Source: a virus. From it: 64,000 bases of DNA. Within the stretch, counting starts at the first letter, position 1. Each line of letters starts with the position of its first letter. This document shows, one piece after another, positions 25,395 to 41,602 of the stretch. The stretch spans positions 32,001-96,000 of the IMG/VR virus record IMGVR_UViG_3300018080_000112, one strand, 5' to 3'. The notes beneath the pieces are model-generated. The model saw only the letters and a list, made by a program, of their open reading frames with translations, searched no databases and was not told the origin of the DNA. The position numbers and the translations under genes were made by a program.

Positions 25395-25850
25395 TTATAC
25401 CCTCGGATCTCTCCGCGCTACAGGAACCTCCAGTCCCTTCTCAATGTAATACGCCAGCACACCCTCCGCGACCTTACCCAACTCCTCTACAGCTTCCCCC
25501 GGTGTCTCTCCTGTTTGACTGCATGCGCTGTGACCGAAATCCGGTAGCCACGCCAACCAATAGCTGTCTTCACCGTCCTCCATCCACTGCAAAGAGACCG
25601 GATACAACCTCAAAATCTCATCACCCGTTAACTTCTCCCCGTTGTAAGGGTGCGTACTTTCCGGACATAGCGGCTTGTACTTACCAAAATTGTAACGGTC
25701 ATTGTAGTGCTGCATCGCCGCCGCCCACGAAAGCGCCTCAAAAGACTCTACATGCTTCCGATCCACACCAAAAGCTAAATCCTTCTGTGTGTGATTCTCC
25801 GGGACCAAACCAGCATCACCGTCCGCCGTCTCCCATATCTCAAATTTCAT
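25395..25850 (-). CDS. HicB-like domain protein with an N-terminal extension
   Basis: C-terminal half 'YPVSLQWMEDGEDSYWLAWLPDF..CSQTGETPGEAVEELGKVAEGVLAYYIEKGLEVPV' matches the HicB antitoxin fold pattern. No hicA seen adjacent. Confidence 0.7.
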   Translation of the reverse strand: MKFEIWETADGDAGLVPENHTQKDLAFGVDRKHVESFEALSWAAAMQHYNDRYNFGKYKPLCPESTHPYNGEKLTGDEILRLYPVSLQWMEDGEDSYWLAWLPDFGHSACSQTGETPGEAVEELGKVAEGVLAYYIEKGLEVPVARRDPRV

Positions 25851-25860
25851 CTCTCTTCTC

Positions 25861-26155
25861 CCCAGGCTGTTGACCTCGAAACCGTCTCTGGTTCAAGACT
25901 GTTGACTTTCTGAAACACTGAAACAAAGCTGTTGACCCTTGTGAGATATCTTTTCAAAGCTGTTGACCCTCCGAAACCTCATAGCCCAAGGTTGTTGACA
26001 TTTCGTCTCTTACGCAAACAAAGCTGTTGATATCCTCGATAACGGTTCTCAAGGCTGTTGATCTCTCCACAGAGATACGCGCAAGGCTGTTGACTATCTG
26101 CAGGTTGTCGCTCAAGGCTGTTGATTTCGCCAATGACGGAACTCAAGGCTGTTGA
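25861..26155 (+). repeat. Phased TCAAGGCTGTTGA box array B (10 units)
   Basis: Boxes at 25861, 25893, 25923, 25954, 25986, 26018, 26049, 26081, 26112 and 26143 (period 30-32). Confidence 0.9.
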
Positions 26156-26474: not shown

Positions 26475-26993
26475 TCATCTGGCTTTTTTGAGAAAATTCC
26501 GATTGTCCGGAAGCGTCTCCATGATCTCCGTCACTTGCTTCAAAGACAACGGAAGATAGTTGTTGTTGTCCACTCCAACATCCCATTGTTTACCAACAGG
26601 AGGCAAACCGCCGTGACTGTGACCGTACAGTTGCCAACTGTTGTAATGAGAAAGACCCCAAACTCGCATCGCGTAATGACAAACCACAATGTGCTGACCC
26701 GAAAGCTTCTTCTCCCAGATCTCATGTGCTGTCTTGTCCAACCACTGGTCGTGACTACCGCGCAAAAAGATGTGCGTCCCGTTCAGAGCCTCCACATACC
26801 TTTGCGCATCTTCGCCCCGTCGTAACGTGAAATCACCAGCATGCACCACAATGTCATTGTCCGTGACCACGCTGTTGTGCAAACGAGCCAACTCCACATC
26901 CATCTCCTCCACCGTCGCAAACGGACGGTCACAGTACTTGATGATGTTCGTGTGTCCGTAGTGCTCGTCCGCTGTGAAAAAATATGTGCTCAT
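26475..26993 (-). CDS. Calcineurin-like metallophosphoesterase
   Basis: Motifs 'ADEHYGH', 'HAGDF', 'RGSHD', 'CHY' and 'YGHSH'. Confidence 0.9.
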   Translation of the reverse strand: MSTYFFTADEHYGHTNIIKYCDRPFATVEEMDVELARLHNSVVTDNDIVVHAGDFTLRRGEDAQRYVEALNGTHIFLRGSHDQWLDKTAHEIWEKKLSGQHIVVCHYAMRVWGLSHYNSWQLYGHSHGGLPPVGKQWDVGVDNNNYLPLSLKQVTEIMETLPDNRNFLKKAR

Positions 26994-27011
26994 CCCCGTA
27001 TCTACTCCGTT

Positions 27012-27270
27012 TCAAGACTGTTGACCTACCTAAAGAACTCAAAAAAGGCTGTTGACGATACATACTTACCTTTTCAAGACCGTTGACCCTGTTATTACGG
27101 GCAAAAAGGCTGTTGACCGTACCCGTCATGAAGCTCAAGGCTGTTGACACCTTCGCTGTTCCGCTCAAGGCTGTTGACAACGGTTTAGCCTTTTCTCAAG
27201 GCTGTTGACTATCAAGATGAGACAATCAAGGCTGTTGACTTGGACTCCCGACATCATTCAAGGTTGTTGA
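27012..27270 (+). repeat. Phased TCAAGGCTGTTGA box array C (9 units)
   Basis: Boxes at 27012, 27043, 27074, 27104, 27135, 27165, 27196, 27226 and 27258. Confidence 0.9.
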
Positions 27271-28719
27271 CTCAGGTGAAACTCCTAACGTCATCAATCT
27301 AACATCCGCTCTAACTCACGTACACGCTCTTGTAACGACGCTCGACCACGAGCCATCACTCCCATCAACTTCCAATACACGTCATGCAAATGATCCGGCA
27401 ATAACTCGCCTTCATCCAACTTACGACCGTCTACATGAAAACCTCCCGGCGATACACGCAACTTCTCCACCTCTGAACCATCATCCGCCAAGATCACAAA
27501 TATCAGGTCCTCGACAGCACCACATCCGTCCAAAAAATCACACATCGCTCGATACACCCGCTTGTCATGCGAACTGTGTACCTTTAAACCCCAAGTCTTA
27601 TCCTCCAACAAAACGTTGTCTGCACAGAAACCGTCCGTACCAACCTCCAACACCACGCGCTCTCCCACCTTCCGCACACGACCATCAGCACCCTCCTTCT
27701 CCACCGGTAATAGAAATCGGACACGATTGCTCTCGCCAACCCCGATCTTCACACCTCCAGACCCCACAACTACTCCCACCGCGTGACGCTCATCATCGAA
27801 ATCACTCCACTGTGCGCCAGCTTCCACTACAAAACCACCACTTCGATCCAACACCCCTGACCCCGCTTCGACCCCGCCTTCCTCACCGGACCCCACAGCG
27901 GAACTCGACCCCGACAACTCACGCGACTCCAACCACTCGTAATACCCCTCCACCAAACATCGAAACTCCACCGGCGTTACCAACAACGCCTCCTCCCTGT
28001 CCGATACAAAAATTCCCTCCTCCACAAATGACTCCGCAGATTGATCCGTCACATACGGTCGCGTGTCCCCTACCTCATCTCGATAATCCGACCAAACTCG
28101 ATCACCACTCACACGCATCACAAACGAATGACCCTTCCCACGTCCACCCCAAACCTGTCCTACCTCCACACGCTGTACCATCTCCCCTACGCTCCTTTCT
28201 ATTTCCCATCCCAAACGTTCACTTATAGAGACACAACTTTTTTCCAAATGTAACCACTACACCCATCATGAACCTATACACCAAGATTTTACCCCGCACA
28301 TATACACCCCCCTCTAACAACACAGACAAACACAGACCCACTTTCGCTGTCTCAATTTTTTCTCTGAAAAACTGACGCCAGAAATAATACATGACTTTTT
28401 TATCCAAATTTTTCTCAGAAAAATGTAGACCTGTTTCTTCACTGTAATTTTTCTCTGAAAAACTGAATTCCCACTAGGGGATACCTTACGATCTGCGTTT
28501 TGTAGTTTGGATAGGGGGGGGCATAAATCGCCGCCGAAAGTCGCCAAAAAGCGACCTAATCAGCGATCTGCGGCGCGTTCTCTGGTGCATGCGGCTGGCG
28601 GCTGGCGTCTCGTCCCTACATGCGTCCTTGCTATTCATTTACACGTTGTCGGCACATTCGCAAACGGCTCTGTATATACGTGTCTCTGGCAAAAGCCCCT
28701 AGCTGTTCAGATCAGCTTA

Positions 28720-28915
28720 TCAATATGAGCTTTATGATACGGCGCAGATGATCGGCGCAACTTGTCAATATGGGCTTTATGATATGACCGTTATGATACG
28801 ACGCTTTTGCAAAACGCTCTGTATGACAACTTGTCAATATGGCGTTTATGATACGGGCTTTATGATACGGCGCTTTTCATAGAGGGCTTTATGATATGGC
28901 GTTTATGATACGGTC
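28720..28915. repeat. Cluster of TTATGATAYG-like short repeats (left border of the island)
   Basis: About 7 TATGATA cores plus a repeated CAACTTGTCAATATG, in non-coding DNA. Confidence 0.75.
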
Positions 28916-28993
28916 GTTTTGGCGACACACAAAAAATGTTAGGACCTAACCCCAAGGCGCTTCCCCTGGCATGACTTTTGACGGCGGTGAAGT

Positions 28994-29111
28994 ACTGAAC
29001 AACTGACCGAAATTCCGAAGTACTGAACAGACCTTGGAAATCTGAGACTACTGAACAACTGACAGAAAAACGGACGGCGCGACTCCGGCGAAGAATCACT
29101 GAACAACTGAC
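28994..29111 (+). repeat. Iteron-like ACTGAACAACTGAC repeats
   Basis: Full copies at 28994, 29050 and 29098; partial ACTGAACA at 29022 (and at 29282, outside this span). Confidence 0.7.
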
Positions 29112-32100
29112 CGAAATTCGTCCGTCCAATTCCTACGCCGGACGTAGGTCAAAAAAAGCGCGAAGTCTTTTATCTCGTAGGGGGAGATTTTTTACCCGAA
29201 GTGACCTAAGTGATTGAAAATACTACGGCGAGATTTTGGCGAGATTCCGCGAGATTTGTAGGACGCGGAGCGGCTCTTGACACTGAACAGAACCGACTAG
29301 TTGCTTTGCGGCTTGCCTAGCAACGGACAACCGGCGGCGCACGGCATCTCGGCGCAGTCCAGATCATGCTCCGCCTGATACTCTTCGGGGTCCACATCAT
29401 CACCAAGGATTGGCGCGGCGTGATCCCGACAAGCACCTTCAGCCGATTCCTCTTGTGCAGCGCAGTGACGATCCCACGCCTCTACGTTATGATCGTAGCT
29501 CATTGGTCAACCTCCATTCTGGCTTGCGTTCTCCGCTTGCTCTTGGTCCTCTTGTTCCAGTTCCTTGGCAAGCTCAACACACTCCTCCAAGGGGTCCTCA
29601 ATGGCATAACACGCGGCGACAGGGTCATAACCGCAAGAGACCTCTCCGACCTTCTCCGCGATCCACTCTAGCTTTTCTCGTAGCTTTTTCGCCTTCATCA
29701 GTCAACCTCCAATCCATTCCGGCTTGAGTTCTTCGGGAATGAAGTCTTCCAGAAACACATCCCACGACCCGTCATCGTACTGACGTTCAAGGATGTAGCT
29801 GTTGGGTCCAAGGACCTTGAAACGAAGCGTCGTGTCCGCCGGAGGGTTCTCTGTGCCGAGATATCCCCACTCCTCCACGTGGTCATTCTCCCAATGATCC
29901 ATAAGCTCGCCAAGGGTGAAGGTCTGCGGCTCCTTCTCAAACGACTCAAGGTGCTCGCACTGTTCCTCGAACTCTCGATCCGCTTCGGGCTGATACAGCG
30001 CTTGGCGTTGCTTGCTATGCTCATCCAGTAGCTCGTTGGCGGTCTTGTGATGCTCGACAAGCATCTTCGCTTCGCCCGGTTTCAGTCCATCCCAGAAATT
30101 GCTCATTGTCCAATCCTCCAATCCGCAAAGGGTTACACTAGATCAAGGGCAAGCCTTTTTTCTGACTACTCTTCAAGCTCTTGCCACTGCAGCACACAAG
30201 GTCCGCCGCGCTCGAAAACAGGTCGCGGAATGGTCGCAAAGATCTTTTCCTGGAACATCATCTCGTCTACTTTGCGCGGACCAGGATCAAGGGTCAGTGA
30301 GTACATCCCGATCATAAAGACCTCGTTGGGGTAACGGGTCTCGAAGATCTGAACAGTCTCCGCCCCGCTTGTGACGTACCCAAACCGGCGGATATCCTCA
30401 AAGGCAATCGAGGGATAATAGCCACGCGGCTCTTTGGCGTAGTTCAGCTTGCCGGGGTCCGGGCTATCCAATAACAGCCTTGCACATTCCTTGAAGTACA
30501 ACCGCCGCTGGATCTGTTTCGCCGCTACGTACCCTTCATCTGTCAAGGTCCCGTGGGAGTCCAGCAAGCCACGGTTCTGAAGTGCTTGGACCTTTTGCTT
30601 GTGGAAGGACGGCTTGACCTTCCAGCCCTTCGAGCGGAGCACCAGCACCGCAAACAACTCTTGTCCCCTGTTCAGCTTTTTCATGTATCTGTTCCTTTCG
30701 CCGGGTTCGTGATATCCCGGTAGATCTCGAAAGCTTTCCGAACCACTTCGGATTGGTCGCCCGGTACGGCTCGCACAACGGTCTCAAACAGCGCATCACT
30801 GTCGTCTTCATCATCACACTCAAAGATATCTTGATCGTGCTCATAGGACCAGTGACGCCCCGTGTTGTGGTCATAGATGTTGATCGTATGACACTTGCCA
30901 GGGAGTTCCAGATCATAGACGTAATCCGTAACATCTGCAAAGGTCTCGAAACCATGAAGGACGGCGTCAGCCTTCAGAGCGCCGTTCACAAATTCGGTGT
31001 TGCCTGTGCTGAAAAGGTACAAAGTAAACCCTTGAAGCTTCGTCATTTTACCATCTCCCGTTGTCTGTTTGTCTGTCCTACTTAGCAAGACGTTAGCCGT
31101 TTCGAGATCTGACAAGGTTTCTGAAAAAGTTAGAAGCGAAGCACCTAAATAGTTAGAAGCGAAGCGCTGAAATAGTTAGGACCTACCCTTTTGGTCCGAT
31201 CTTCGCCAATCCTAACCAATCCTAGTCTTCCAGCAAGGGAAGCTTTTCGATGAATGCAACGGTCTCCGGAAGCGCTGTAAGCCACTTGCGCCGATAGTAG
31301 ACCTTCCAGCCCAAAGTGAGATCTTCAAGGGCACAGAAGGACGCTACAAAGGAACCGTACCAGCGAACATGTTCGGCGGTCTTGTGCTTCGGGTCCGCCT
31401 GATAAATAACCGGGTTGCCGGTACACTGCGACCGGACCTTCTTCAAGTTGTCCAATCCCGTAATCATATCGTGGGCGCGGGTCGCTTCGTGAATGAGTTC
31501 CGGAACAAATTGGGTCTTGCCTTGTTTCTGGTTCGCTTGCAATTTCATCGATCCCGCTCCTACTTCGTTAGGGTCCTGTTGGTAGAGACACACTTTCTAG
31601 CAAAGTGCATCCAGGTAGCTCAGAGAAAACTGTTGTCCGTCCACCACAATCTGATCAATATCAAACGGCGCATGGTACACAACACAGCCACGGCGGACCA
31701 GCTTAGCCAGATTACGAAGCTTCGTTGTGGGCTTGCGCTGGTAGTTCACACAAACGTTCGCCGTGAATCCCAATCCCGCCGCGTTCAACTCCTGAACCAA
31801 TTCCGCCTTCGAAGATGCCTTGCGTCGTTGCCTTGCCATTGTTCCAATCCTCCGCTTGTCTGGGGTCACCTTTCGGCTCCTCCGGGTCTATTGTTGTCTG
31901 TTTGTGTTTCCGTGTCTTGTCGTGGCTCTCTCAGCCATTGATTGCTTCCAGAATGCGAACCTTCAAAGAGAGGTCATACCAGATCTCGTAACCGAACCAG
32001 TAAGCTTTTCCGCAGTAGCTGAGATAGTGATCCTTGATGATCTCTTGAACTTCTTCGACCTTGTCCGCCGGGATCAAAAGCGCGGACTCTTTGATTGTTC

Positions 32101-32589
32101 TTGTATCGACCTGGTAGCCGCTCTTGTGGAAGGTCAAACCGTTTTTGAAAATGTCCGGGTGACACACCGTGGTCTGTTTCGCGCCACTGCGACCGACCTT
32201 CATCAAACCGTGGCAATACAAGAGAACATCGCCAGCCTTCAGCTTGCGCGTGATGTTGGTCGGACAACCGGCGTGCTTCCAAGAAAAGAACGTGGTGTCA
32301 AAACGAAGAGGTTCGCTACCGTAGCGCGGCGACAATCGCGGGGTCACTCCGAGCTTGACGCATGCGGTGTCAAAGAGACGCTTGTGAGTGTATCGAGCGA
32401 TCTCATAATCTTCGGTCGTTTCCAGCTTAGCTTTTTCCATCGATCCAATCCTCCATGAGGGAAAAGGGGTTGCACTTACATAAACAAGGTCAAGACTTTT
32501 TTCTGACTCTGCGCCGGTCAGAAGATCAGCGGAAAAGGGACGGAGAAGAGAGGGACGGGCTTTTTCTGACCCGTCCCCCCCGCCGGTCT

Positions 32590-34143
32590 CTACCAGCCGT
32601 TGCGAGCCTTGCGGACCACGATGGCGCTTTTGACGGCGCGAGTAAGAGCGGTGTAACTCCAGCGGTAAACTTGATCCGCTTCGTTCTCTGCGATGAAGTC
32701 AACCATGTCCGCGACAACAATGATTTCAGCGTACTGAGAACCTTGCGCGGCGTGGCAAGTGATGGCGTAACCACTGTCAAGGCTTGCCAGGTAGTGTTTG
32801 AGGTAAAGAGCGTGTGCGCCGTGTTTCCGTGCTTCCTGAGCGGTCCAGATAGCGACTAACCAGTTGGCGGCTTCTTCGTCCTTGCGAGCTTTCCAAGCGT
32901 CCTGTTTCTCGGCGACCTTGGCATAAATCTTTTCGCCGTGCTTGGCGATATCTTCCGCGATGAACTCTTCCATGTTCTTCTGGATGGAGTAGGGAACCAG
33001 ACCGCGATGTTTGGGCTGACAGTTACCATCCCAAGTTGCGCGGAGAACTGCGACCTCTCGTTCACGACCGTTGGCGACTCTCAAGACCCATCCGTCACCG
33101 AAGTTGGGACCGAAGTCAGCATGCTCAACTGATTTGACAGTGACCACATCGGAGTTGTTGAGACCGCCACCCTTGGCGCGACAGATGAGGCGCTCGCCTA
33201 CTTGCGGACCTTCGTTGCGGCGTGGCATGCCGAGAAAGTAGCGAGTTGCGTCATTCAATTCGGTGCGGGTTGCGTGGGTGCCTACGATTGCAGCGGCGTC
33301 ACCGTTGTTGGCGCGGAACATGTTCGCCAGAGTCTCGCCAGCTTGTCCACTGTCCATCCAGGGGCTACGAACACCGGCGCGGTCCAGAATCGCTTGACCC
33401 GCTTTGAAATCGGCTACGCGGCTGTAGGTGAAGGGGACCTTGCGGTTGCGAATGTTGGTTGCAGCGTTCAGGACCGGGGAAGCTTCCGCTTGGCGGTAGA
33501 CCTTGGAGAGAGTCACGGTTGCTTCGTGCAAGGGGAATCCGGCTTCTTCTTTGACCGGCGGAAGTTGGTGGGGGTCGCCGACCGCGATGATTTTTGTGGT
33601 CTCGGGAAGAGCGTTCCAGATATCGGCGGCGAACTCTTTGCCGACCATTGAAGCTTCGTCAATCACCAGGATGTTGCCGACCTTGGCGGTTCCAGGCTCG
33701 CGGCGATTGAAAGCAAGCTCATCACCGAATTCGGCGACCTTGACGACCTCGTTACCATCTTCGTCAAGCTCAACCTCTTCTTCGCGAATCTCTTCAGCAC
33801 CGGCGTAAACGATGGAGTGGGCGGTGACCACTTTCTTGTCTGCGAAGTCAGCGCCAAGGGCTTCTTGAAAACGACCCGCCGCCTTGTGGGTCGGTGCGGC
33901 GTTGGTGACGGTGTTGCGACAGTCGGTGAGAACCTGAAGGAGAAGCTTGAGAGTGGTGGTTTTGCCAGTGCCTGCAGCGCCGGGGAAGAGACAGAGACGC
34001 TCGCCAGCGGCGATTTGGCGGAGAGTGTGGGCGATGAGGTCACGTTGCTCGCGACCCGGCTCAAAATCAAGATTGTAGATGGAACAAAGAAGAGTTGTAC
34101 TTTCGAAAAGGTCGATTGCGGTTTGAAGGTCGGTCGGTCTCAT
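32590..34143 (-). CDS. Dda/RecD-like superfamily 1B DNA helicase
   Basis: Walker A GAAGTGKTT, 'APTHKAA', DEASM, 'GDPHQLPPV', 'YRQ', 'YAITCHAAQGSQY' and 'YTALTRA'. Confidence 0.92.
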   Translation of the reverse strand: MRPTDLQTAIDLFESTTLLCSIYNLDFEPGREQRDLIAHTLRQIAAGERLCLFPGAAGTGKTTTLKLLLQVLTDCRNTVTNAAPTHKAAGRFQEALGADFADKKVVTAHSIVYAGAEEIREEEVELDEDGNEVVKVAEFGDELAFNRREPGTAKVGNILVIDEASMVGKEFAADIWNALPETTKIIAVGDPHQLPPVKEEAGFPLHEATVTLSKVYRQAEASPVLNAATNIRNRKVPFTYSRVADFKAGQAILDRAGVRSPWMDSGQAGETLANMFRANNGDAAAIVGTHATRTELNDATRYFLGMPRRNEGPQVGERLICRAKGGGLNNSDVVTVKSVEHADFGPNFGDGWVLRVANGREREVAVLRATWDGNCQPKHRGLVPYSIQKNMEEFIAEDIAKHGEKIYAKVAEKQDAWKARKDEEAANWLVAIWTAQEARKHGAHALYLKHYLASLDSGYAITCHAAQGSQYAEIIVVADMVDFIAENEADQVYRWSYTALTRAVKSAIVVRKARNGW

Positions 34144-34617
34144 TGTCTGGCTCCTTGTTGCCGTTTGAGAAAAAATCAGTGCGCTTACAAAAACAAGGGC
34201 AAGACTTTTTTCTGACTCTGATCTTTTTCAGGATCACCAAAGAGGATCACCATGAAATAGGATCACGATCTGGGATTGGAGATCACCAAGGGGGATCAAG
34301 AGCGCCCAAGGGGGTCGGTACAAGCGACACCCTTTCTCTGGGGGTCCTTTTGTTGACCTATAGGTCACAGACAACGAGAAGGGGTCTGGCGAGCCTTTTA
34401 AGGCGTTTTGTGGTTTGCGAGACTTCTGGTATTCATCCCGGTCTCTTTGTGCGTTGTAGGGGTGTTTCTGTGATCCACTTTTGGCGGGTTCCTGGCTCTG
34501 ATCAGAAGGGTTAGGTCCTAACCTTGTTGTGTGGGATTGGAGCGGATTGGAGCGGAGTAGATCGGGTTGTGTGGGATTGATTAGGATCTGTTGGGATTGG
34601 AGCGGAGTGAATCGGAA

Positions 34618-35166
34618 CTATTCGGCGCGGTGCAAAAAGACGTGGACCTCATTCCCATCTTCGACAAAATCAACATCCCCATTGGTCTCGCGGTCGTCTG
34701 CATACTCTTCATAATCGAAGTACAGAGCCAGCTTGCGTTGTGCCTCTTTTGGAAGGGTGCTGAACTCCATCTCAAGAACTTCTTCCGCCCAATGACGCTT
34801 GGAGGGGTAGGTTCCAGCGTAGCGGTCAAGGTATGCTTCCGCTTCATCCAGGTAGTACACACCGCCGCCGTAGTTCAGCGCCGCCGATACTTTTTCAAGA
34901 CCGTGCTCTTGAATCATCTCAGCAAGGCGAACGGCGGAATCAAGACCCGAGTACTCACCTAGCCAGCCGCCGAAACCTTCATGATCGTGAATCGCGATTT
35001 CTTCGGCGAACTCCACCGGCGATCTTGCGAGCAAACCAGCGACCGCCTCTTGTGCAGAGTCAAGGTCATGTTCCGAGAGATCCAGCCAGCAACCATTGTG
35101 ACGACCGGCATTGTAAGCGGCGAGATCAGCAACGTAGATTTTCGGGGTGTCGGTGTTCATGTTCAT
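34618..35166 (-). CDS. ardA: Anti-restriction protein ArdA
   Basis: 'PKIYVADLAAYNAG..GCWLDL', 'EEIAIHDHEGF' and 'YFDYEEYADD'; strongly acidic. Confidence 0.9.
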   Translation of the reverse strand: MNMNTDTPKIYVADLAAYNAGRHNGCWLDLSEHDLDSAQEAVAGLLARSPVEFAEEIAIHDHEGFGGWLGEYSGLDSAVRLAEMIQEHGLEKVSAALNYGGGVYYLDEAEAYLDRYAGTYPSKRHWAEEVLEMEFSTLPKEAQRKLALYFDYEEYADDRETNGDVDFVEDGNEVHVFLHRAE

Positions 35167-35191
35167 TGTTCGGCTCCTTCAAGCGTATTTG

Positions 35192-35518
35192 TTATCGGTT
35201 GTTGGCGGCGGAAGCAATCACGGCGGCGGCGAGTGCAAGGCGATGCTTGCAGAGAAATCCGTTCTTGCTATCGACACATTGACAGACACAAGAACCATCT
35301 TCGCGGAGAGTGGGGCTGTAGGTCTCACCACGCGAACCTTTGAGAGTGATCCAGGCGACCTCACCGAACGCGAACAAGCGGCGATTGTCCATCACCATTT
35401 TGAAGATATCTTTGGCGCGGCGAACGCGGCGACCGTTGGAAGGGTTATTGTCAGCGGCTTGACGCCCACGGTTGCGGATTGTGATGGCGGCTTGTTTAAG
35501 GTCGGTTGAGATGTTCAT
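35192..35518 (-). CDS. SWIM zinc-finger protein
   Basis: 'GSRGETY..CVCQCVD..LCKHRLAL' (CxC..CxH). Confidence 0.75.
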   Translation of the reverse strand: MNISTDLKQAAITIRNRGRQAADNNPSNGRRVRRAKDIFKMVMDNRRLFAFGEVAWITLKGSRGETYSPTLREDGSCVCQCVDSKNGFLCKHRLALAAAVIASAANNR

Positions 35519-36093
35519 GGTCTGGCTCCTGTTTCACGTTGCCGTGCGGCTCCTTGTGCCGGTTAAAAAAACAATTCCCTTGAAATAGTGAGGGCAAGAC
35601 TTTTTTCTGACTCTGATCAGATCACCCTTTTTCTGTGTGTTCAGTATAGGATTGGGGGATTGGCGGGTTCTGTCTTACAAAAACAGTGGGATCGCCCGTT
35701 CTAATAATTTCAGGTATTTGGATATCCAAAAGTGCGCCGGTCTCCCAAGGCGAAACACCAGCCGGGGGCTGTTCAGGTTCGTACAAGATTTGTAGGAGTG
35801 ACGGCTACAAGATTCGACCAAAAACCACTGAACAAAACCACGAAAATAGGTCTCTCCAGCGGGATCGGCGGAGAAGGGTAGTCAAAAACTGTTGACAGGG
35901 GTGCAGGATCTTATAATATACGAAGTGTCATTGAACGTTTCTAGTTCGATCTGTCTGTATTCCCATGAAGCTTCGAAAAAGTCCTTGGCTGGTTGCTCCT
36001 CCCCTGGTGACCAGCCAAGGCACCCCTTTATCTAGCTGATATCATTAGATCCACACTGGTTAGGTCCTAACCTTTTGGGTACAGCGACAAAAC

Positions 36094-36306
36094 GCCCGTA
36101 TTATAAAGGGCATATCATAACGACCTACCTGTAAAATCACCGTATTATATGAGCCGTATCATAATGACCGTATTGTTCGGCGGCGACTCTCATACAGCGC
36201 CGTATGATACGACTGTTTTATCAGGAACTCCTTTATGATATGACGCTTGTCATACAGGACGTTTTACCAGATAGGTCCGTATAATATGAGCTTTATAATA
36301 CGGTCA
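36094..36306. repeat. Cluster of TATNATA short repeats (right border of the island)
   Basis: About 8 CCGTATYATA / TATRATAYG cores in both orientations; same family as 28720-28915. Confidence 0.7.
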
Positions 36307-36574
36307 CTTTGGCGGAACCACGGGCGCGGCGAACTACACTTGCAGAGTCGTCACTTCGGCGGCTAAGCGTGCGCGGCGAATAAAAAATACAGAGGTTGTG
36401 CGAGCGGGGGTGCCGGGGGTCTGGACGGGGGGCACCGTCTTTTTTGTCGTTTAGTGGTCTTTTTGGGTTAGTTTTTGTCGTTTAGTGGTCGTTTAGTGGT
36501 CATTTAGGTTGGGTCATTTTTGGTTGGTTTTGGTTGTTTGTTGTGTATTGGGTTAGTCATTGTGTACGTATCTA

Positions 36575-37312
36575 TCAGTGTTTAAGGAGCACCTTTTCGA
36601 ATCGTGAGTGGTTAGAGTGTTGATAGAAGGCGAGAACTTGTTCCCATACGTTAGAGGCTGGTTGAAATTGATCCCATGGAATAGAGACGGTAGCGGAGAA
36701 AGCTGAGATAGCTTGGAGGAATTGTTGGTAAGCTCTTTCGAGAAGGTAGAGGTATTGGTTATTGGGTTCCAGTAGTTGTTGTTCGAAGGGTCTATTTCTT
36801 TGTTGAATCCTTTCTTTCAGAACGTGTACAGGAACATCTAAGTAGATAATGAGATCGGGGTATGGTCTGATAGATTTCATGATGTTAAAAGTGCGTAGGT
36901 AGAGTTGATAGAGAGTCTTTGACATGTTACCGATTTGGTAATTCAGGAAGGCAAAGACGGAGTCTCCATCGGTGGATCTGTCAGTGATAGCTCCTGGTAT
37001 TTCGTTAGTAGCGATTTGTGTGGTAGCGGATCTTTCGAGTTCGAGTCTGATGGTAAGCATTTGAATTTGCATTGGGAAGGAGAAGGCTTTTTGGTCTCTA
37101 TAGAAATCTTCGAGTAGAGGGTTTTTATGTTTGGAGGTAGGTTCTTCGAAGCATTTGTATTCGAGTAGAGAGGCGAGTTGATTGGCGAAGGTAGTTTTTC
37201 CTGCGCCGATAGGACCTTCAACGGCGATATATTTGGGGAAAGGTTTATTGGGTTCATCCATCCACGAGTGAGTTTGAAGGTCACTGAGGTTATGAAGTGG
37301 TTGTGTAGTCAT
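36575..37312 (-). CDS. Deoxynucleoside kinase
   Basis: 'IAVEGPIGAGKTT', 'FEEP', 'DRS', 'PDLIIYLD' and 'RIQQRNRPFE'. Confidence 0.9.
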   Translation of the reverse strand: MTTQPLHNLSDLQTHSWMDEPNKPFPKYIAVEGPIGAGKTTFANQLASLLEYKCFEEPTSKHKNPLLEDFYRDQKAFSFPMQIQMLTIRLELERSATTQIATNEIPGAITDRSTDGDSVFAFLNYQIGNMSKTLYQLYLRTFNIMKSIRPYPDLIIYLDVPVHVLKERIQQRNRPFEQQLLEPNNQYLYLLERAYQQFLQAISAFSATVSIPWDQFQPASNVWEQVLAFYQHSNHSRFEKVLLKH

Positions 37313-38723
37313 TGAGTGAGTTTCCTTTGTGTGTGGTTGTGATTTTGGTGGTGTAATCCTTGTGTTTGGTGGTGTCTTAGATCATAGCTTGTTTTGTAGT
37401 TTGTGGGCAAGCGGATAAGTAATTTTGTGGTAATTTTGTGGTGGTTGGAGTCGTGGTGTTGAGTATGTTCGGAGCGGGGCGGCTATGGTTAGAGGCGGGA
37501 CGCTGATGGGGTTAGGAGGTGGAACACCGATAGGGTTAGGACCTAACAATTTGGTGTTTCCCATCTAATCTTTCGGTGTTCCACCTCTATGATTTTAGGT
37601 GTTTCAAATGTGTTTTGTGTTCATTTTATCGATTTAGTGGCGTGGTGCTGTATTTACTGCGGGGGAGTTAGATCGTCTTGTGTAGGTGCGGTGGAGGTAT
37701 CTGGCGGTTCATCTGTTTCTGTTTGTTCGGTGGTTTGGTCTTTTGCATATAGGAGTCGATTTGGTGTAAGTAGATAGAGAGTCAATTTGGCGAGAGTTTC
37801 TGGGGTCATATGTGAAGCTGGTATGACGTTGGTTTTGGATTCAATCTGAGCTTTGGAGGGTATTAGCGATTCAGCGTGATCGGGTGTAAACCAGAGAATG
37901 ATGTTGGGTGATATTTGTGTAATTTTGGCGAAGAAGTCTTTGGTGTAATCATCGAGCGGGTGGTAATCTTGGCCGATCATAATGGTCAGATTCGCTTGTG
38001 ATGCGAGTTGAATTTGGTGATTGTAATGGAGGTGTCTGAGTCCATAGATTCGTATCAATTCAGTGGGGAAGAATTGGAGGTCAGAGGGTAGTGAGGAGCG
38101 TAGGAAAGAGAAGGTCAGATCGTGATCTGGCGCGAGTGTATTGTCGATAAATTGTTTAAGCTGGTAGCGAAGTTTTTCGAACCAGTGGTTTGTTTGCGCG
38201 TCACCGAGACACGCAATTTTGAGGGGTTGTTTCATGGGGTTGATCTCCGGGTCATTGTGAAGGTTGTCTGTTTACTTTGTGGGTATTGTTTCTGTTGGGG
38301 GTGGTAGCGGGAACATTTCTTGTTGCGAGATAGCGGGTGCAGCTTGGATGTGATTCGGGGCTTGAGACGGGATGTTTGTGGGTATTTCAGGAAGGCTCAT
38401 TTTCTGTTCTTCGGGGTTCTTTGTGTAGTGATGTTTGAGTTCTTGTCTTCTCCAGGTCATCATTTGAGGGATCAGCATGATGGAGTGTTCGACCGCTTCG
38501 ATGGGTGCGTCAAGAGCGGACGCAATTTCATCTGGTGAGAATCCTCTTGTGATATAGGGTAGAAGTTGTTCGGGGTAGAGTTCTCTTTCGATGGGTTCTC
38601 CGTCGTGAGTGAATCCATCCCATACGGCGCAGAAGGGGCATTTCTTATCTACTAAAGGGGGCATGTTGTTCGTGGCTCCTGTTCAATGTGTTCCATTCGT
38701 TGTTGGGGGTCCGCTGTTCCATT

Positions 38724-39326
38724 TCAAGGCTATTGATCTTGGTTGTAACATCCTGGTTCGAGGTTGTTGATCATTTACACTTCAAGCCGCAAGGTTGTTG
38801 ACTGAAAACGTTGATCTTCGTTCAAGGTTGTTGACTATATGTTATACCAAATCGCAAGGCTGTTTCCCCTATCTCGGGAGTAGTGCAAGGCTATTAATAG
38901 AGACACATGTTTTGTCAAAAGCGTACCGTTTTCGGGTACAAAAGTTTGCAAAGCTGTTGACCATGCGGAACTTCGCTGCAAGGCTGTTGATCGATGTTCC
39001 CGCCATAAACAAGGCTGTTTCCTTCTCGTAGCACCAAGCGAAGGCTGTTGACCGTTCGGAATGCTCTTCAAGGCTGTTGACCATTCGGAATGCTCTTCAA
39101 GGCTGTTGACCATGCGGAACTCCGCTTCAAGGCTGTTAATGATGCGGTTGTAGTTCAAGGCTACTGACTCCAATTGAGGAGCGGTTCAAGGCTTGTTGAC
39201 CGTAATCCTACCCGTGGTCAAGGCTGATGATGATGCTCTCACTTCTTTATCAAGGCTGTTTTCGTTACAGTTCCTTTCCGTCAAAGGCTGTTAACTCCGT
39301 TTGAGGGGCATTTGCAAGGCTATTGA
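38724..39326 (+). repeat. Phased TCAAGGCTGTTGA box array D (~19 units)
   Basis: Boxes from 38724 to 39314 at ~28-34 bp spacing; one 63-bp gap (38885 to 38948) contains a promoter-like motif. Confidence 0.88.
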
Positions 39327-39850
39327 CGAAGGGTGCTAGGGGTCGTCTTCACATTCCACGCCATAATGTACATAAGGGAGAAGCGCGGCTCTTGTGAACT
39401 GGTCAGAGTTGACCAGATCAAGCTGTATCTGGTGTTTGCACCGGGGGCATTCAAGGATTACTTGACTCAAGGGAAAGGGTTGACCGTGTTGTTTCTGGAA
39501 CGCTTTCACGTAGATTTGTTGCATGAATGTTCCGCAACAAAGGACACGGAACAGGGTGCGATTGACCATCGCTTTGGCGGTGACCTTTGGGGGTGTAGCA
39601 AGGAGTTTACTACCGTGGCGCGGTGGTTTCAGAATGGTCTCTTTCATGATCTTACCTATGATTTCAGACAAAACGTTTGGGGGCGTTTGTCAAACGGGTT
39701 GTTACTTAGGAGTAAGCTAAGTAAGCTAAACCGATTCTAATAAAATCGGCATGTTATTGGAAAAAACAAGCTAAAAAGTAAGCTAAAAGTTAGGACCTAA
39801 CCAATTTTAGTTTACTCTGTGAGCTTATCAGAATGAGCTTGCGAGTCTCC

Positions 39851-41602
39851 TTAGAACGAGAATGAGAAACCGCCGCCCTTTCTTTCAGATGCAAACACGG
39901 CGAAATTGAGCGCGTCAAGGCTGTGGGGGTCCATTCCGACCATGTTCCATCTCATTCTATAGCGCCCGGTCTCTTCTTCGACCTCGACCTTCTCACGAAC
40001 AGGACAAGCGAAGTGTGGATATGCGTGGGTTCGCATGATCGGATAGTTGTCTTTGCGACCGCCGCCGTAGGGGTGACACTCTTGTACTTGCTTGTCTGGA
40101 TCAGGCCAAACCATCTTCTTTTTGACAATCAGATTAATGGTGTAGCCAATGGATTTGTAGAGATCCAGGTACACTCGGCGTTTGGCGACTGTTTCCGGGC
40201 GAGCTTTCTTGTGCTTCTTTTTGGTCTTGCCTTCTTCCCACGAGACCATATCGTTGTATTCGTTTGAGTAGGCAAGGATCACCTTTCTGGGATAGTCGTT
40301 GGCGAAGTTCAGCGCGTCGTTACTGTGGGGCATAGCGTCCACCACACAGACCTCAACATCAAACTTTTCTAACAGTTCGCCAGTGCGTTTCCAGGGGTGA
40401 GAATCTTCGATGATCTCGAACCAAACGATCCGCCGCTTGTCGCCTTGTCTGTTTATGATAAACACGTAGTTCATGTTCATCATTTGGTCAACACCCATAT
40501 AGTTCACGCCGATATAATCGCCCCAAACAGCGAGAGGATCAACGTTGTTGTCAAGGTCTTCCTCTTCAATCGGCTTGTTTGTTTTGTCTACAAAGGGGAT
40601 GCCAAGCATATGGTTGTAGAACTCTTTCATGTCCGTGGTGTTCTCGTATTCGAACATGATTTCATCTGGCGTTGTCTTGCTACTGATCAGTTGGCTGATC
40701 TGGAATCCGGAGTTCGCATGTCCGGGGTTGTGTGCGATGTAGCGACCGCGTTGTGTGTTGACCAGTTCCGTTTTGCACTTCTTACACTGGATATAGTACT
40801 GACCTTTCTTCGGTCCCTTGGTGTGTCTCGCCATGCAATTCGGGAATTCCGTTGCCAGTATTTGTTCGCAATTGCAAGCGTGACAACGGGTGTAGAACCA
40901 CTTCTGATCCGTGTTTAGAAAGAGCTTATGAATATCGCCATTGGGATAACCAGCGGTAGAAACGTGATGTTTGTAGCGGTAGGGGACTGACGCAAGCACG
41001 CGAGCGTAGGCTTGAAAGATCTCGCTGATTTTGACAAGGCGGACCTCATCAAAGAAGAGCGCGTTCATGGGGACGGAGTCTTTGGTGGACTGACCACCCA
41101 TGTAGAGGAAATAGAGAGACGATTTCCCCACGGGGCGGAGATCTTGACGCTGTTCCTTGGAGTAGGGGCGTAGGTCGTTGCAAGATTTCATCAGGGGGAC
41201 CACGCGATCCTTGACCACGCGCCCGATACCTTTGGAGTCCGGGAAGTAGAAACCGATCTTGATCGGGTGGTCAAATCCCCACGAAGCGTGAAAGAGAGAC
41301 ATGTGGAAGGCTTTTAGCATCATGTAGATGGTTGCACCCATCTGCGCCGCCTTCATCAGCACAACGTACTCTGAGCGGTCAGAGAAGAGCGGGTACAAAT
41401 AAGCGTGACCGGCAAAAGAGAACGGGTTCTCATCGACCTCCACGCCGCTATGTTCCGCCCACAAGGGGAGTCGTCTCTTCATGTAGGCTTGCATCAGCTT
41501 TGGAGGGATCTGGCTTGCCGTCAAGACCTTCTGTGTCTGTTCTGTTGTTGGTTGTACCACCGGGCTTGCAACCGGTTGAATGAGGGGTGCAGAAGCGGAC
41601 AT
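39851..41602 (-). CDS. terL: Terminase large subunit (lambda gpA-like family)
   Basis: 'VVLMKAAQMGAT' Walker A, 'FFDEVR' Walker B, 'VSTAG' coupling motif, CxxC pairs, 'GFQISQL', 'FYNHMLGIPF' and nuclease 'MGVDQ'. Confidence 0.88.
   Translation of the reverse strand: MSASAPLIQPVASPVVQPTTEQTQKVLTASQIPPKLMQAYMKRRLPLWAEHSGVEVDENPFSFAGHAYLYPLFSDRSEYVVLMKAAQMGATIYMMLKAFHMSLFHASWGFDHPIKIGFYFPDSKGIGRVVKDRVVPLMKSCNDLRPYSKEQRQDLRPVGKSSLYFLYMGGQSTKDSVPMNALFFDEVRLVKISEIFQAYARVLASVPYRYKHHVSTAGYPNGDIHKLFLNTDQKWFYTRCHACNCEQILATEFPNCMARHTKGPKKGQYYIQCKKCKTELVNTQRGRYIAHNPGHANSGFQISQLISSKTTPDEIMFEYENTTDMKEFYNHMLGIPFVDKTNKPIEEEDLDNNVDPLAVWGDYIGVNYMGVDQMMNMNYVFIINRQGDKRRIVWFEIIEDSHPWKRTGELLEKFDVEVCVVDAMPHSNDALNFANDYPRKVILAYSNEYNDMVSWEEGKTKKKHKKARPETVAKRRVYLDLYKSIGYTINLIVKKKMVWPDPDKQVQECHPYGGGRKDNYPIMRTHAYPHFACPVREKVEVEEETGRYRMRWNMVGMDPHSLDALNFAVFASERKGGGFSFSF

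Follow-up and report, generated by a model that had tools for sequence, protein, structure and literature searches.

In an uncultivated phage of ~145–160 kb we have found a 7.1-kb island of early genes flanked on either side by a control module rich in repeats, the two copies being mutually inverted; just beyond each border module the strand running outward is nearly devoid of C. The locus has a definite anatomy (Table 1), its skew has a polarity that is conserved in related phages, and the bias is positional. Plausibly, though we would not yet call it probable, this is an origin-type zone in which iteron modules launch outward strand-displacing DNA synthesis. Coordinates are those of the window, i.e., the whole stretch of 64,000 nt analyzed (positions 32,001 to 96,000 of the 143,941-bp record IMGVR_UViG_3300018080_000112). 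Origins and physical ends are not known for almost all uncultivated phages, and if the proposal is confirmed, a sharp keto-skew dipole that is independent of gene orientation and lies beside inverted iterons would reveal from sequence alone where strand opening begins.

Table 1. Features of the island, its borders and the flanking skew blocks (window coordinates).
Feature	Position	Strand	Remarks
Left box array	27010..27272	+	~9 AAGGCTGTTGAC-type boxes, ~31-bp period; outer edge of left skew block
295-aa protein gene (left extreme-skew block)	27294..28181	-	Coding strand G/T-rich
Left border, outer part	28226..28480	-	Promoter-like TGTGTCTCTATAA element, G-run, G/T-rich stretch (- strand)
GC-rich element, ~110 nt	28495..28610		GGTCGC-TTTTTG-GCGAC hairpin, C8 run, CAAACTAC word
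Left iteron array	28720..28915	+	Seven TATGATAYG-type 14-bp repeats, single orientation
Left arm of 78-nt inverted repeat	28874..28951		Iterons and GTTAGGACCTAAC palindrome at 28938
Five ACTGAACA words	28994..29289	+	Inner flank of left border
Island genes	29297..35518	-	Synteny kept in four lineages
Seven small ORFs (63–172 aa)	29297–32440	-	In island
Four promoter-like AGGGCAAGAC-N6-CTGACT elements	30137, 32478, 34187, 35582		In island
Dda/RecD-like SF1 helicase	32590–34143	-	In island
ArdA	34618–35166	-	In island
SWIM zinc-finger protein	35192–35518	-	In island
Rightward promoter and hairpin	35892..36023	+	TTGACA-16-TAATAT, then stable hairpin with loop CUCCCCUGG
Right arm of 78-nt inverted repeat	36058..36135		Palindrome at 36059 and reverse-oriented iterons
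Right iteron palindrome	36085..36314		Four reverse copies (36097–36163) opposite forward copies at 36203–36302
Outer right border	36303..36545	+	Two GTCACTT(C/T)GGCGG..GCGGCGAA boxes, three G5–6 runs, G/T tandem repeats
Right extreme-skew block	36575..38664	-	dNK, 60-aa ORF, 193-aa protein, 130-aa protein
Deoxynucleoside kinase (dNK)	36575–37312	-	Right block
Right box array	38724..39330	+	~19 boxes; outer edge of right skew block
111-aa gene and large terminase terL (GpA type, 39851–41602)	39336..41602	-	Tail of reversed skew

The island and its flanking skew blocks

A sequence-only reading had placed ArdA, a SWIM protein and a Dda-like helicase inside the island, with terL nearby, and all of these positions were confirmed; it was also right that the island holds four of the seven copies of the AGTCAG..TTGCCCT promoter-like motif in the window (11 genome-wide). 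The same reading described strongly skewed genes on both sides, and these blocks turned out to be the sole sustained extremes in the entire record. The GC skew on the + strand was -0.47 to -0.58 at 27300–28500 and +0.35 to +0.52 at 36300–38700, over a genome mean of -0.13 (sd 0.14). On both sides the G/T-rich strand runs 5'→3' outward from the island, despite all genes being on the minus strand. GC and AT skews move jointly in the blocks (keto skew), which fits C→T loss on an exposed strand.

The bias decays outward. Adjoining the left border the GC3 skew of the + strand was -0.64; to the right it went from +0.68 in the dNK gene to +0.21 in terL and 0 by 43 kb, reaching about -0.1 at 44–51 kb and about -0.3 past 53 kb. 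Read on their coding strand, the 111-aa gene and terL had a GC3 skew of -0.2. There is a sign change of strand asymmetry at the site, as in iteron origins, and the flip of GC skew suggested earlier is real as a local event, but no genome-wide step of the replichore type was present in the record. Within the island the skew is mild and changes sign near 32.5 kb, which may reflect the C3-rich codon use of the genes behind the AGGGCAAGAC promoter class. The island midpoint (32505) was considered as a meaningful skew switch; it matches in the window and is absent in the related lineage L038, so that we attribute it to chance. The search for 7-mers and 8-mers switching orientation at the locus gave no convincing case.

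The skew reaches into the encoded proteins. Gly, Val, Arg, Trp and Cys make up 55% of the residues of the 295-aa protein, the C-terminal half of which has G/T-rich homologues in lineages L041 and L038; Pfam, PHROG and Atlas gave no lead on its function. In the right block the coding strand is C/A-rich and G accounts for 6–15% at codon positions 2 and 3. Here the 193-aa protein showed a weak fold resemblance to nucleoside 2-deoxyribosyltransferases and no further lead, and the function search with the 130-aa protein gave none. In most block genes (dNK, and ChlI in lineage L035) the bias is strongest at third codon positions, the genes of the 193-aa, 130-aa and 295-aa proteins being the exceptions.

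Architecture of the border modules

The arms of the 78-nt inverted repeat are 77% complementary. The TATNATA clusters reported on both sides were confirmed, since 18 of the 21 copies of TATNATAYG in the whole window (0.8 expected) fall at 28733–28912 and 36097–36302. These 18 iterons are phased at 14-bp steps in two clusters, when at least three phased repeats are the mark of an iteron origin. The right iteron palindrome has 52-nt arms with 126 nt between them, and two of its copies are readable on both strands. The ACTGAACA words, seven in total, are confined to the inner border flanks. The border-specific features are the 14-bp TATNATAYG iterons, the ACTGAACA words and the 78-nt inverted repeat.

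Two other elements had been taken as mirrored border signs. The GTTAGGWCCTAAC palindrome does occur at 28938 and 36059 but is no border marker, because its 28 copies are dispersed over the genome (also at 34510, 37535, 39789 and 43845). The box arrays are mirrored in position, ending at 27272 and resuming at 38724, but not in orientation: they are co-oriented, all 20 exact boxes being on the + strand, and boxes appear at many other intergenic sites too.

At the left border alone, three or four AT-rich TTTTTCAGAGAAAAA repeats (28355–28470) form a candidate unwinding element, in a stretch (28201–28500) with a GC content of 0.38; an adjacent AT-rich unwinding element is typical of iteron origins. 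On the right side, the promoter at 35892–35919 is the sole conserved one opposing the direction of the genes, and it is aimed into the right iteron palindrome. The hairpin behind it has a folding energy of -26 to -28 kcal/mol (z -3.9 to -5.2). Farther out, the G-runs (36405–36435) end in a terminator-like hairpin (36423–36440), followed by five GTCGTTTAGTGG-type G/T tandem repeats. A promoter directed into the repeats together with a G-rich transcript element (35892–35919, hairpin and G-runs) is the arrangement of transcription-primed origins. The Rfam search of 26–40 kb returned no match.

Conservation and positional nature of the bias

The synteny of the island is retained in lineages L012, L038, L041 and L042, with variation in the small genes, and the right skew block is conserved in L012 and L038, the right box array being far shorter in L012. 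The outer left-border elements, including the AT-rich repeats, are conserved in L038 and L041 (three lineages with the window), and in these three the ~110-nt GC-rich element is near-invariant over sequences otherwise ~70% identical. Scanning metagenomes with the conserved left-border word gave 47 matches and one further true relative (L155), found by means of this element. The hexamers of the 35892 promoter are invariant in three lineages. In L012 the stem of the hairpin differs in sequence while complementarity is kept, and the right iteron palindrome has a similar layout with a diverged repeat sequence. The cultured-phage collection held no near-identical phage DNA; an IMG/VR scan with terL gave no match, and one with a helicase profile recovered distant helicases alone (24–36% identity).

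Two kinds of comparison bear on the origin of the skew. In L031 and L032 other genes, in other orientations, lie within the same extreme block, and in the distant lineage L035 the two blocks directly adjoin each other, their meeting point being a palindromic iteron centre with 48-nt arms of 90% complementarity, where the skew passes from -0.45 to +0.84; the latter value extends over 1.2 kb of G/T-only tandem repeats with only doubtful ORF calls. Orthologues of the 130-aa, 111-aa, terL and helicase genes have coding-strand GC3 skews of +0.2 to +0.5 or near zero in L033, L034 and L010, where the locus is absent, and of -0.2 to -0.5 in the lineages carrying it. The 130-aa gene orthologues in L033 and L034 are of normal skew, and in these more distant lineages terL adjoins the helicase and the borders are absent. 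As the skew is reversed solely in locus-bearing lineages, the bias is positional, being imposed on genes where they lie. The locus also illustrates how far proteins can be reshaped by a local DNA transaction, the same family being Gly/Val/Arg-rich or Pro/Thr/Gln-rich depending on its position.

A possible replication-initiation zone

The two borders are inverted copies of one cis-acting module that reads, from the island outward, palindrome, 14-bp iterons, conserved GC-rich element, AT-rich or G/T-rich repeats and G-runs. At these modules a putative iteron-binding protein would open the DNA or nick it, with synthesis then proceeding outward; at the right border, the promoter facing the iteron palindrome could supply an activating or priming transcript. 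The displaced strand would stay single-stranded over the first 1–2.4 kb, where its C would be deaminated to T and the resident genes recoded. Given this proposed outward synthesis, we read the locus as a replication-initiation zone around ArdA, the SWIM protein and the Dda-type helicase; if true, an anti-restriction gene and a helicase sit at the strand-opening site. What we infer is that one strand is exposed single-stranded, that synthesis runs outward and that a transcript primes it; the build of the borders is origin-like by observation, with iterons, AT-rich repeats, a conserved sigma-70-type promoter and hairpin directed toward the iterons, and G-runs.

The earlier idea that the borders delimit the origin gains from the skew polarity, its outward decay, its imposition in place and this origin-like build, but no initiator gene was recognized: searches of the island and flanking proteins with Pfam and PHROGs gave no initiator of the Rep, O, DnaA or wHTH kind, and several of these proteins lack any assignment. 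In favour of the reading, the replication genes are of the T7/T5 type (PolA, DnaB-like helicase, Mre11/SbcC), and no protein-primed (PolB-type) polymerase was seen among the large ORFs scanned. Also against an origin, there are two or three iteron arrays and not one, the record lacks a replichore-type skew step, and the interior sign change is unlike what two bidirectional border origins would give. Skews of 0.5–0.84 are far above ordinary replication skew, so selection may be needed too. A more speculative version, about which we are doubtful, is that a family of large marine and sediment phages uses a mitochondria-like strand-displacing start at a palindromic iteron centre with selected C-free "launch pads". 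The displaced strand would there be single-stranded for kilobases, nearly all C would be stripped and every resident gene recoded, and the C-free stretches would be a functional part of the origin or genome-end machinery. To our knowledge, tailed phages have not been reported to carry anything of this sort.

Genome ends and terminal repeats

The origin reading is compatible with the island being terminally repeated as well. The main rival, possible if rather unlikely, takes the island (~28.9–36.1 kb) on its own as a long direct terminal repeat that assembly has collapsed, and as a first-entering early region. The borders would then be terminase processing sites recognized with two-fold symmetry and without origin function, and the skew would arise as a side effect of end processing. 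Among cultured phages the closest TerL relatives are Felix O1-like and Herelleviridae phages, which package by terminal repeats (581 bp in Pr103Blw, PMC8303462; 7.6 kb in vB_SauM-515A1, PMC7596081), but TerL identity to cultured phages is only ~29%. As the borders do here, inverted repeats bracket the Twort-like LTRs (verified in phage K), where they measure 12 bp (PMC7596081), and the genes of those LTRs are the earliest expressed (PMC11598898); our island holds ArdA and four of the 11 early-type promoter motifs. That terL closes the upstream module is the T7-like order.

Assembly data point partly the same way. Public contigs number 8–9 per island gene and 2–6 just right of the border, and one sample yielded a 10,006-nt contig over 27813–37818 with just a 984-nt contig for the adjacent DNA. 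On the left flank, however, the counts drop gradually to 5–6 and not at the border, and the higher island counts fit a copy-number peak as well as they fit a terminal repeat. Contig ends, clustered at 32554–32694, 36868–37818 and 39720–39743, were tried as a proxy for physical ends and deemed unreliable because a number of them stem from re-assemblies, probably of the same samples, or lie at G/C homopolymer hairpins, the latter being probably sequencing breaks. Both record ends interrupt genes, so that the physical ends must be within the record or in the unassembled ~11%.

What a terminal repeat alone does not predict is the mirrored skew beyond the borders. Ends at the borders with 5'→3' resection were rejected since the skew would have the opposite sign, as were ends at the box arrays, which leave the reversed skew of terL and its neighbours unexplained. 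The analogy with T5 and SPO1 offered earlier fails as an account of the skew: in T5 and phage K the borders of the LTR have nothing comparable, with no skew independent of gene orientation.

Transcription, selection and mobility

Very strong outward transcription or R-loop formation seems unlikely to us as the source of the bias; here deamination would strike the non-template strand, the box arrays would serve as roadblocks or insulators and DNA replication would have no role. The conserved rightward promoter at 35892 does face the right block, the left-block gene is read outward and has a promoter-like element to itself, and in the classic R-loop layout, likewise, G-runs precede a non-template strand rich in G. 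But the terminator-like hairpin at 36423–36440 stands between promoter and right block, any transcript covering dNK through the 130-aa gene would run antisense to genes that are real and conserved, the reversed skew trails on beyond the box array as far as terL, and no matching promoter was found at the L035 centre.

Less credible still is that depletion of C on one strand was selected, and not mutational, to protect or ease the handling of a critical stretch. If G is present on one strand only, DNA has no room for G/C-containing palindromes or for most restriction sites, and it cannot fold when single-stranded; mutation alone is an unlikely builder of the +0.84 stretch of L035, and the amino-acid content of the coding blocks is reshaped. 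ArdA and the early genes are themselves without such protection, however, and the predominance of third-position bias in most block genes is what mutation pressure would give. A mobile or invertible element with terminal inverted repeats is very improbable: a 78-nt inverted repeat composed of several sub-repeats does surround the island, and L033 and L034 have terL beside the helicase without borders, but Pfam and PHROGs gave no transposase, integrase or invertase, the public contigs examined were all in the same orientation at 100% identity, the island helicase is the ancestral neighbour of terL and not cargo, and a simple inversion was rejected because it would switch the strand of the genes, which remain on the minus strand.

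Comparison with known systems

Iteron and transcription-activated origins are known in lambda ori, plasmid iteron origins, ColE1, the T7 primary origin and T4 oriF/oriG. Our locus shares with them phased iterons, AT-rich repeats, a promoter into the iterons, a G-rich transcript-sense stretch and the skew sign change, and differs in the lack of a recognized initiator gene, in having inverted modules 7 kb apart and in a skew that is far stronger and local. In vertebrate mtDNA, strand-displacement replication is accompanied by a strong silent-site asymmetry attributed to single-stranded time, and the primer transcript stops at a G-run (CSBII). The very strong strand asymmetry is alike, although the system is unrelated and the effect here is limited to a few kb either side of a phage locus.

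Among phages, the Twort-like Herelleviridae LTRs (phage K, vB_SauM-515A1) resemble the island in having ~7–8 kb of early genes, inverted-repeat borders and a distantly related terminase; theirs are without iteron arrays and with a skew that tracks gene orientation, and redundancy is only a candidate here. In the T5 left terminal repeat, or first-step-transfer DNA, early genes are likewise followed by a ~1-kb repeat-rich non-coding region (the injection stop signal region), shortly past which is a phosphoesterase gene, and the replication and recombination set is similar (PolA, SbcCD-like). The edge of the T5 LTR is, however, without extreme or mirrored skew, and the terminases are unrelated. 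Finally, in GRINS, which are sequence elements present in repeated copies and linked to gene conversion, intense GC and AT skew recodes proteins (PMC8256042). The recoding is alike, but the only matches between the left and right blocks are two short complementary ones (19 and 21 nt), and the blocks are fixed in position.

A strand-bias dipole at the borders of the early-gene island

We have found that this locus is a real, conserved and positional strand-bias dipole, tied to two inverted iteron modules (the borders) that surround an early-gene island of small ORFs, a Dda-like helicase, ArdA and a SWIM protein. All the elements named in the sequence-only reading are present, and the finding is now better defined than it was there. 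The full IMG/VR record (143,941 bp, rated 89% complete), of which the window is bases 32001-96000, carries nearly all of its genes on the minus strand, with a plus-strand mean GC skew of -0.13. The strand-skew flip proposed at the island was borne out, the blocks immediately outside the borders (27300-28500 and 36300-38700) being the sole sustained extremes in the whole record. GC and AT skew move together, the plus strand being C/A-rich at the left block and G/T-rich at the right one, so that on both sides the G/T-rich strand points outward from the island in its 5'->3' direction, and this although the two blocks have their genes on the minus strand. On the right, the plus-strand GC3 skew decays outward, from +0.68 in the deoxynucleoside kinase gene (dNK) to +0.21 in the large terminase gene (terL), falling to 0 by 43 kb and returning to the baseline at about 53 kb.

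The genes located in the blocks are real. The dNK product gave a Pfam match at 3.6e-38, and the left-block frame runs for 317 codons without a stop on a strand where stop codons are not scarce. Their proteins are recoded: Gly, Arg, Trp, Cys and Val account for 55% of the left-block protein versus 6-12% of the right-block proteins, and in the right block guanine is down to 6-15% at the second and third codon positions. The 193-aa protein has a weak predicted-fold likeness to nucleoside 2-deoxyribosyltransferases (TM 0.54), and on this modelled fold it may form with dNK a nucleotide-salvage pair.

Structure of the borders

Three features are specific to the borders: 14-bp TATNATAYG iterons, ACTGAACA words and a 78-nt inverted repeat. 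The window has 21 of the iterons where 0.8 would be expected, and 18 of them fall within two clusters; the ACTGAACA words (7/7) are all found in the inner flanks. The right border also forms a palindrome of its own, with four reverse iterons opposite forward copies (52-nt arms, 126 nt apart). Outward of the iterons, both borders share related GC-rich boxes, G-runs and G/T-rich repeats. The comparison of relatives gave four conserved non-coding elements, among them the AT-rich TTTTTCAGAGAAAAA repeats. The GC-rich element of the left border is nearly invariant in three lineages whose DNA is otherwise about 70% identical, and it has no match in Rfam. Just 3' of the conserved promoter there is a stable, conserved hairpin (-26 to -28 kcal/mol) in which the stem sequence has changed in the related contig L012 with pairing kept; possible identities are a small non-coding RNA and a DNA cruciform.

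Coordinates in the window of the features of the locus
Feature	Position	Strand	Remarks
Phosphoesterase gene (phrog_547)	26475-26993	-	just outside left box array
GC-rich non-coding element, ~110 nt	28495-28610		left border; hairpin, C8 run, CAAACTAC
Border inverted repeat	28874-28951 / 36058-36135		78-nt arms, 77% complementary; 7,106 nt enclosed
Conserved sigma-70-type promoter	35892-35919	+	sole promoter directed against genes
Promoter with downstream hairpin	35892-36023	+	hairpin loop CUCCCCUGG invariant
193-aa protein gene	37654-38235	-	adjoins dNK
GTTAGGWCCTAAC palindrome	2223, 6795, 12338, 20019, 28938, 34510, 36059, 37535, 39789, 43845, 51256, 56557

Two other repeats given as part of the mirror arrangement fared differently. 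The GTTAGGWCCTAAC palindrome, taken as a border mark, lost this role, since this 13-nt sequence has 28 copies along the 144 kb, mostly intergenic and spaced by about 1.5-13 kb. It probably serves as an operator or terminator specific to its lineage, and the lineage of the related contig L035 has an analogous dispersed palindrome of another sequence (TCTTTAGAGTCTAAAGA). As for the mirrored box arrays, the mirroring holds in position and not in orientation: exact AAGGCTGTTGAC boxes, found at many intergenic sites, number 20 on the plus strand and 0 on the minus strand, and being co-oriented the arrays mirror each other in position alone.

The locus in related phages

In two close relatives (one seen in L012, L038 and L040, with about 73% DNA identity, the other in L041 and L042, with a helicase protein 84% identical), the gene order terL, dNK, SWIM, ArdA, helicase and small genes is kept, together with both border modules and the skew blocks. 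The iteron sequence diverges among these close lineages under a constant layout, as expected of sites that co-evolve with a binding protein. The genes adjoining the left border vary: the 295-aa gene is absent there in L038, and L041 has two genes. The greatest insight comes from the more distant relatives. In L033 and L034 (terL 48-51% identical) terL, the 111-aa gene, the 130-aa gene and the helicase gene are contiguous, with a nucleotide kinase also in the run in L034, and the border modules and the skew reversal are both absent from this region. The 130-aa, 111-aa, terL and helicase orthologues have a coding-strand GC3 skew of -0.2 to -0.5 in lineages with the locus, and of +0.2 to +0.5 or about 0 in those that lack it. 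The bias thus tracks the locus and is a property of position, imposed in place; the skew did not arrive with the genes.

In L035 (helicase 59% identical) two extreme blocks abut, one C-rich (5 kb, skew about -0.45, with a ChlI gene of GC3 skew -0.81 inside) and the other a 1.2-kb G/T-only stretch (skew +0.84). They join at a palindromic iteron centre whose 48-nt arms are 90% complementary and lie 163 nt apart. Two strains of this lineage hold different genes, in different orientations, within the same extreme block.

Replication origin or terminal repeat

The dipole locus may serve as an origin, form the edges of a terminal repeat, or combine the two. Skew polarity, keto character and outward decay fit one picture, and for this reason we rank first, tentatively, an origin-type zone from which strand-displacing synthesis moves outward. 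The strand running 5'->3' outward on each side would be repeatedly exposed as single-stranded DNA, as expected if leading-strand synthesis proceeds outward from the iteron modules. In their build, with iterons, AT-rich repeats, a conserved promoter directed into the palindrome and G-runs starting each block, the borders resemble an origin activated or primed by transcription. Its weak points are that no initiator gene was recognised, that there are several iteron arrays and not one, and that a mild sign change of the skew appears at about 32.5 kb inside the island, which may instead derive from C3-rich codons in the genes that follow promoters of the AGGGCAAGAC class. The skew is also larger than replication asymmetry normally gives, so selection may contribute, a possibility to which the G/T-only tandem arrays of L035 point.

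The serious rival, compatible with origin activity and in our judgement somewhat less likely, is that the island is a long terminal repeat (LTR) with the borders at its edges. ORFs are cut at both ends of the contig, so the physical genome ends must be elsewhere. The large terminase is of GpA type, its closest cultured relatives being those of Felix O1-like phages and Herelleviridae (about 29% identity), and these package with terminal repeats. Twort-like LTRs are of about 8 kb, with inverted repeats on both sides and the earliest genes inside; here ArdA comes directly after a border and terL ends the upstream module. Every island gene, including that of the 517-aa helicase, was found on 8-9 public contigs, with counts on the right side of 3 for dNK, 2-3 for terL, 6 for NYN and 6 for RusA, and on the left, going outward, of 8, 8, 7 and then 5-6. 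One sample gave a 10,006-nt contig spanning 27813-37818 but a contig of just 984 nt for the adjoining DNA. A copy-number peak at an origin would look alike, so these indirect signs of over-representation do not discriminate. Against the rival, T5 and phage K have no orientation-independent skew at their LTR borders, and such skew is therefore not general to terminal-repeat edges.

Three further explanations are less likely: outward transcription or R-loops, selection for DNA free of restriction sites, and an island that is mobile or invertible. The public contigs of this phage are all 100% identical across the island and in one orientation. Resection 5'->3' from a break at the borders was rejected because it would expose the opposite strands, genome ends at the box arrays because they leave the reversed skew of terL unexplained, and membership in GRINS because the skew blocks are not repeats.

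Other observations

Several contig ends from independent assemblies fall on strong hairpins with C7-C8 runs (window 32540-32582 and 28560-28570), and these are probably sequencing or assembly breaks and not biology. Besides the phosphoesterase gene (phrog_547) outside the left box array here, T5 likewise carries one a few kb past its left terminal repeat. The gene set of the phage also includes a family A DNA polymerase with an intein, DnaB-like and SNF2 helicases, an RNR insertion-domain protein, two Mre11-like phosphoesterases, SbcC and RusA. At 26.8-29.4 kb of the genome (2.5-5.2 kb before the window start) there are three AGGGCAAGAC-N6-CTGACT motifs and two of the dispersed palindromes, with short local skew extremes of -0.54 and +0.33 and one gene of GC3 skew -0.69; this may be a second early-gene cluster. 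Finally, window 25638-26028, which covers a HicB-like 151-aa gene with the gap behind it, is a local diversity hot spot, with 15 substitutions in about 370 nt and a 27-nt insertion at 26028 in other samples, the adjoining 10 kb being identical across samples.
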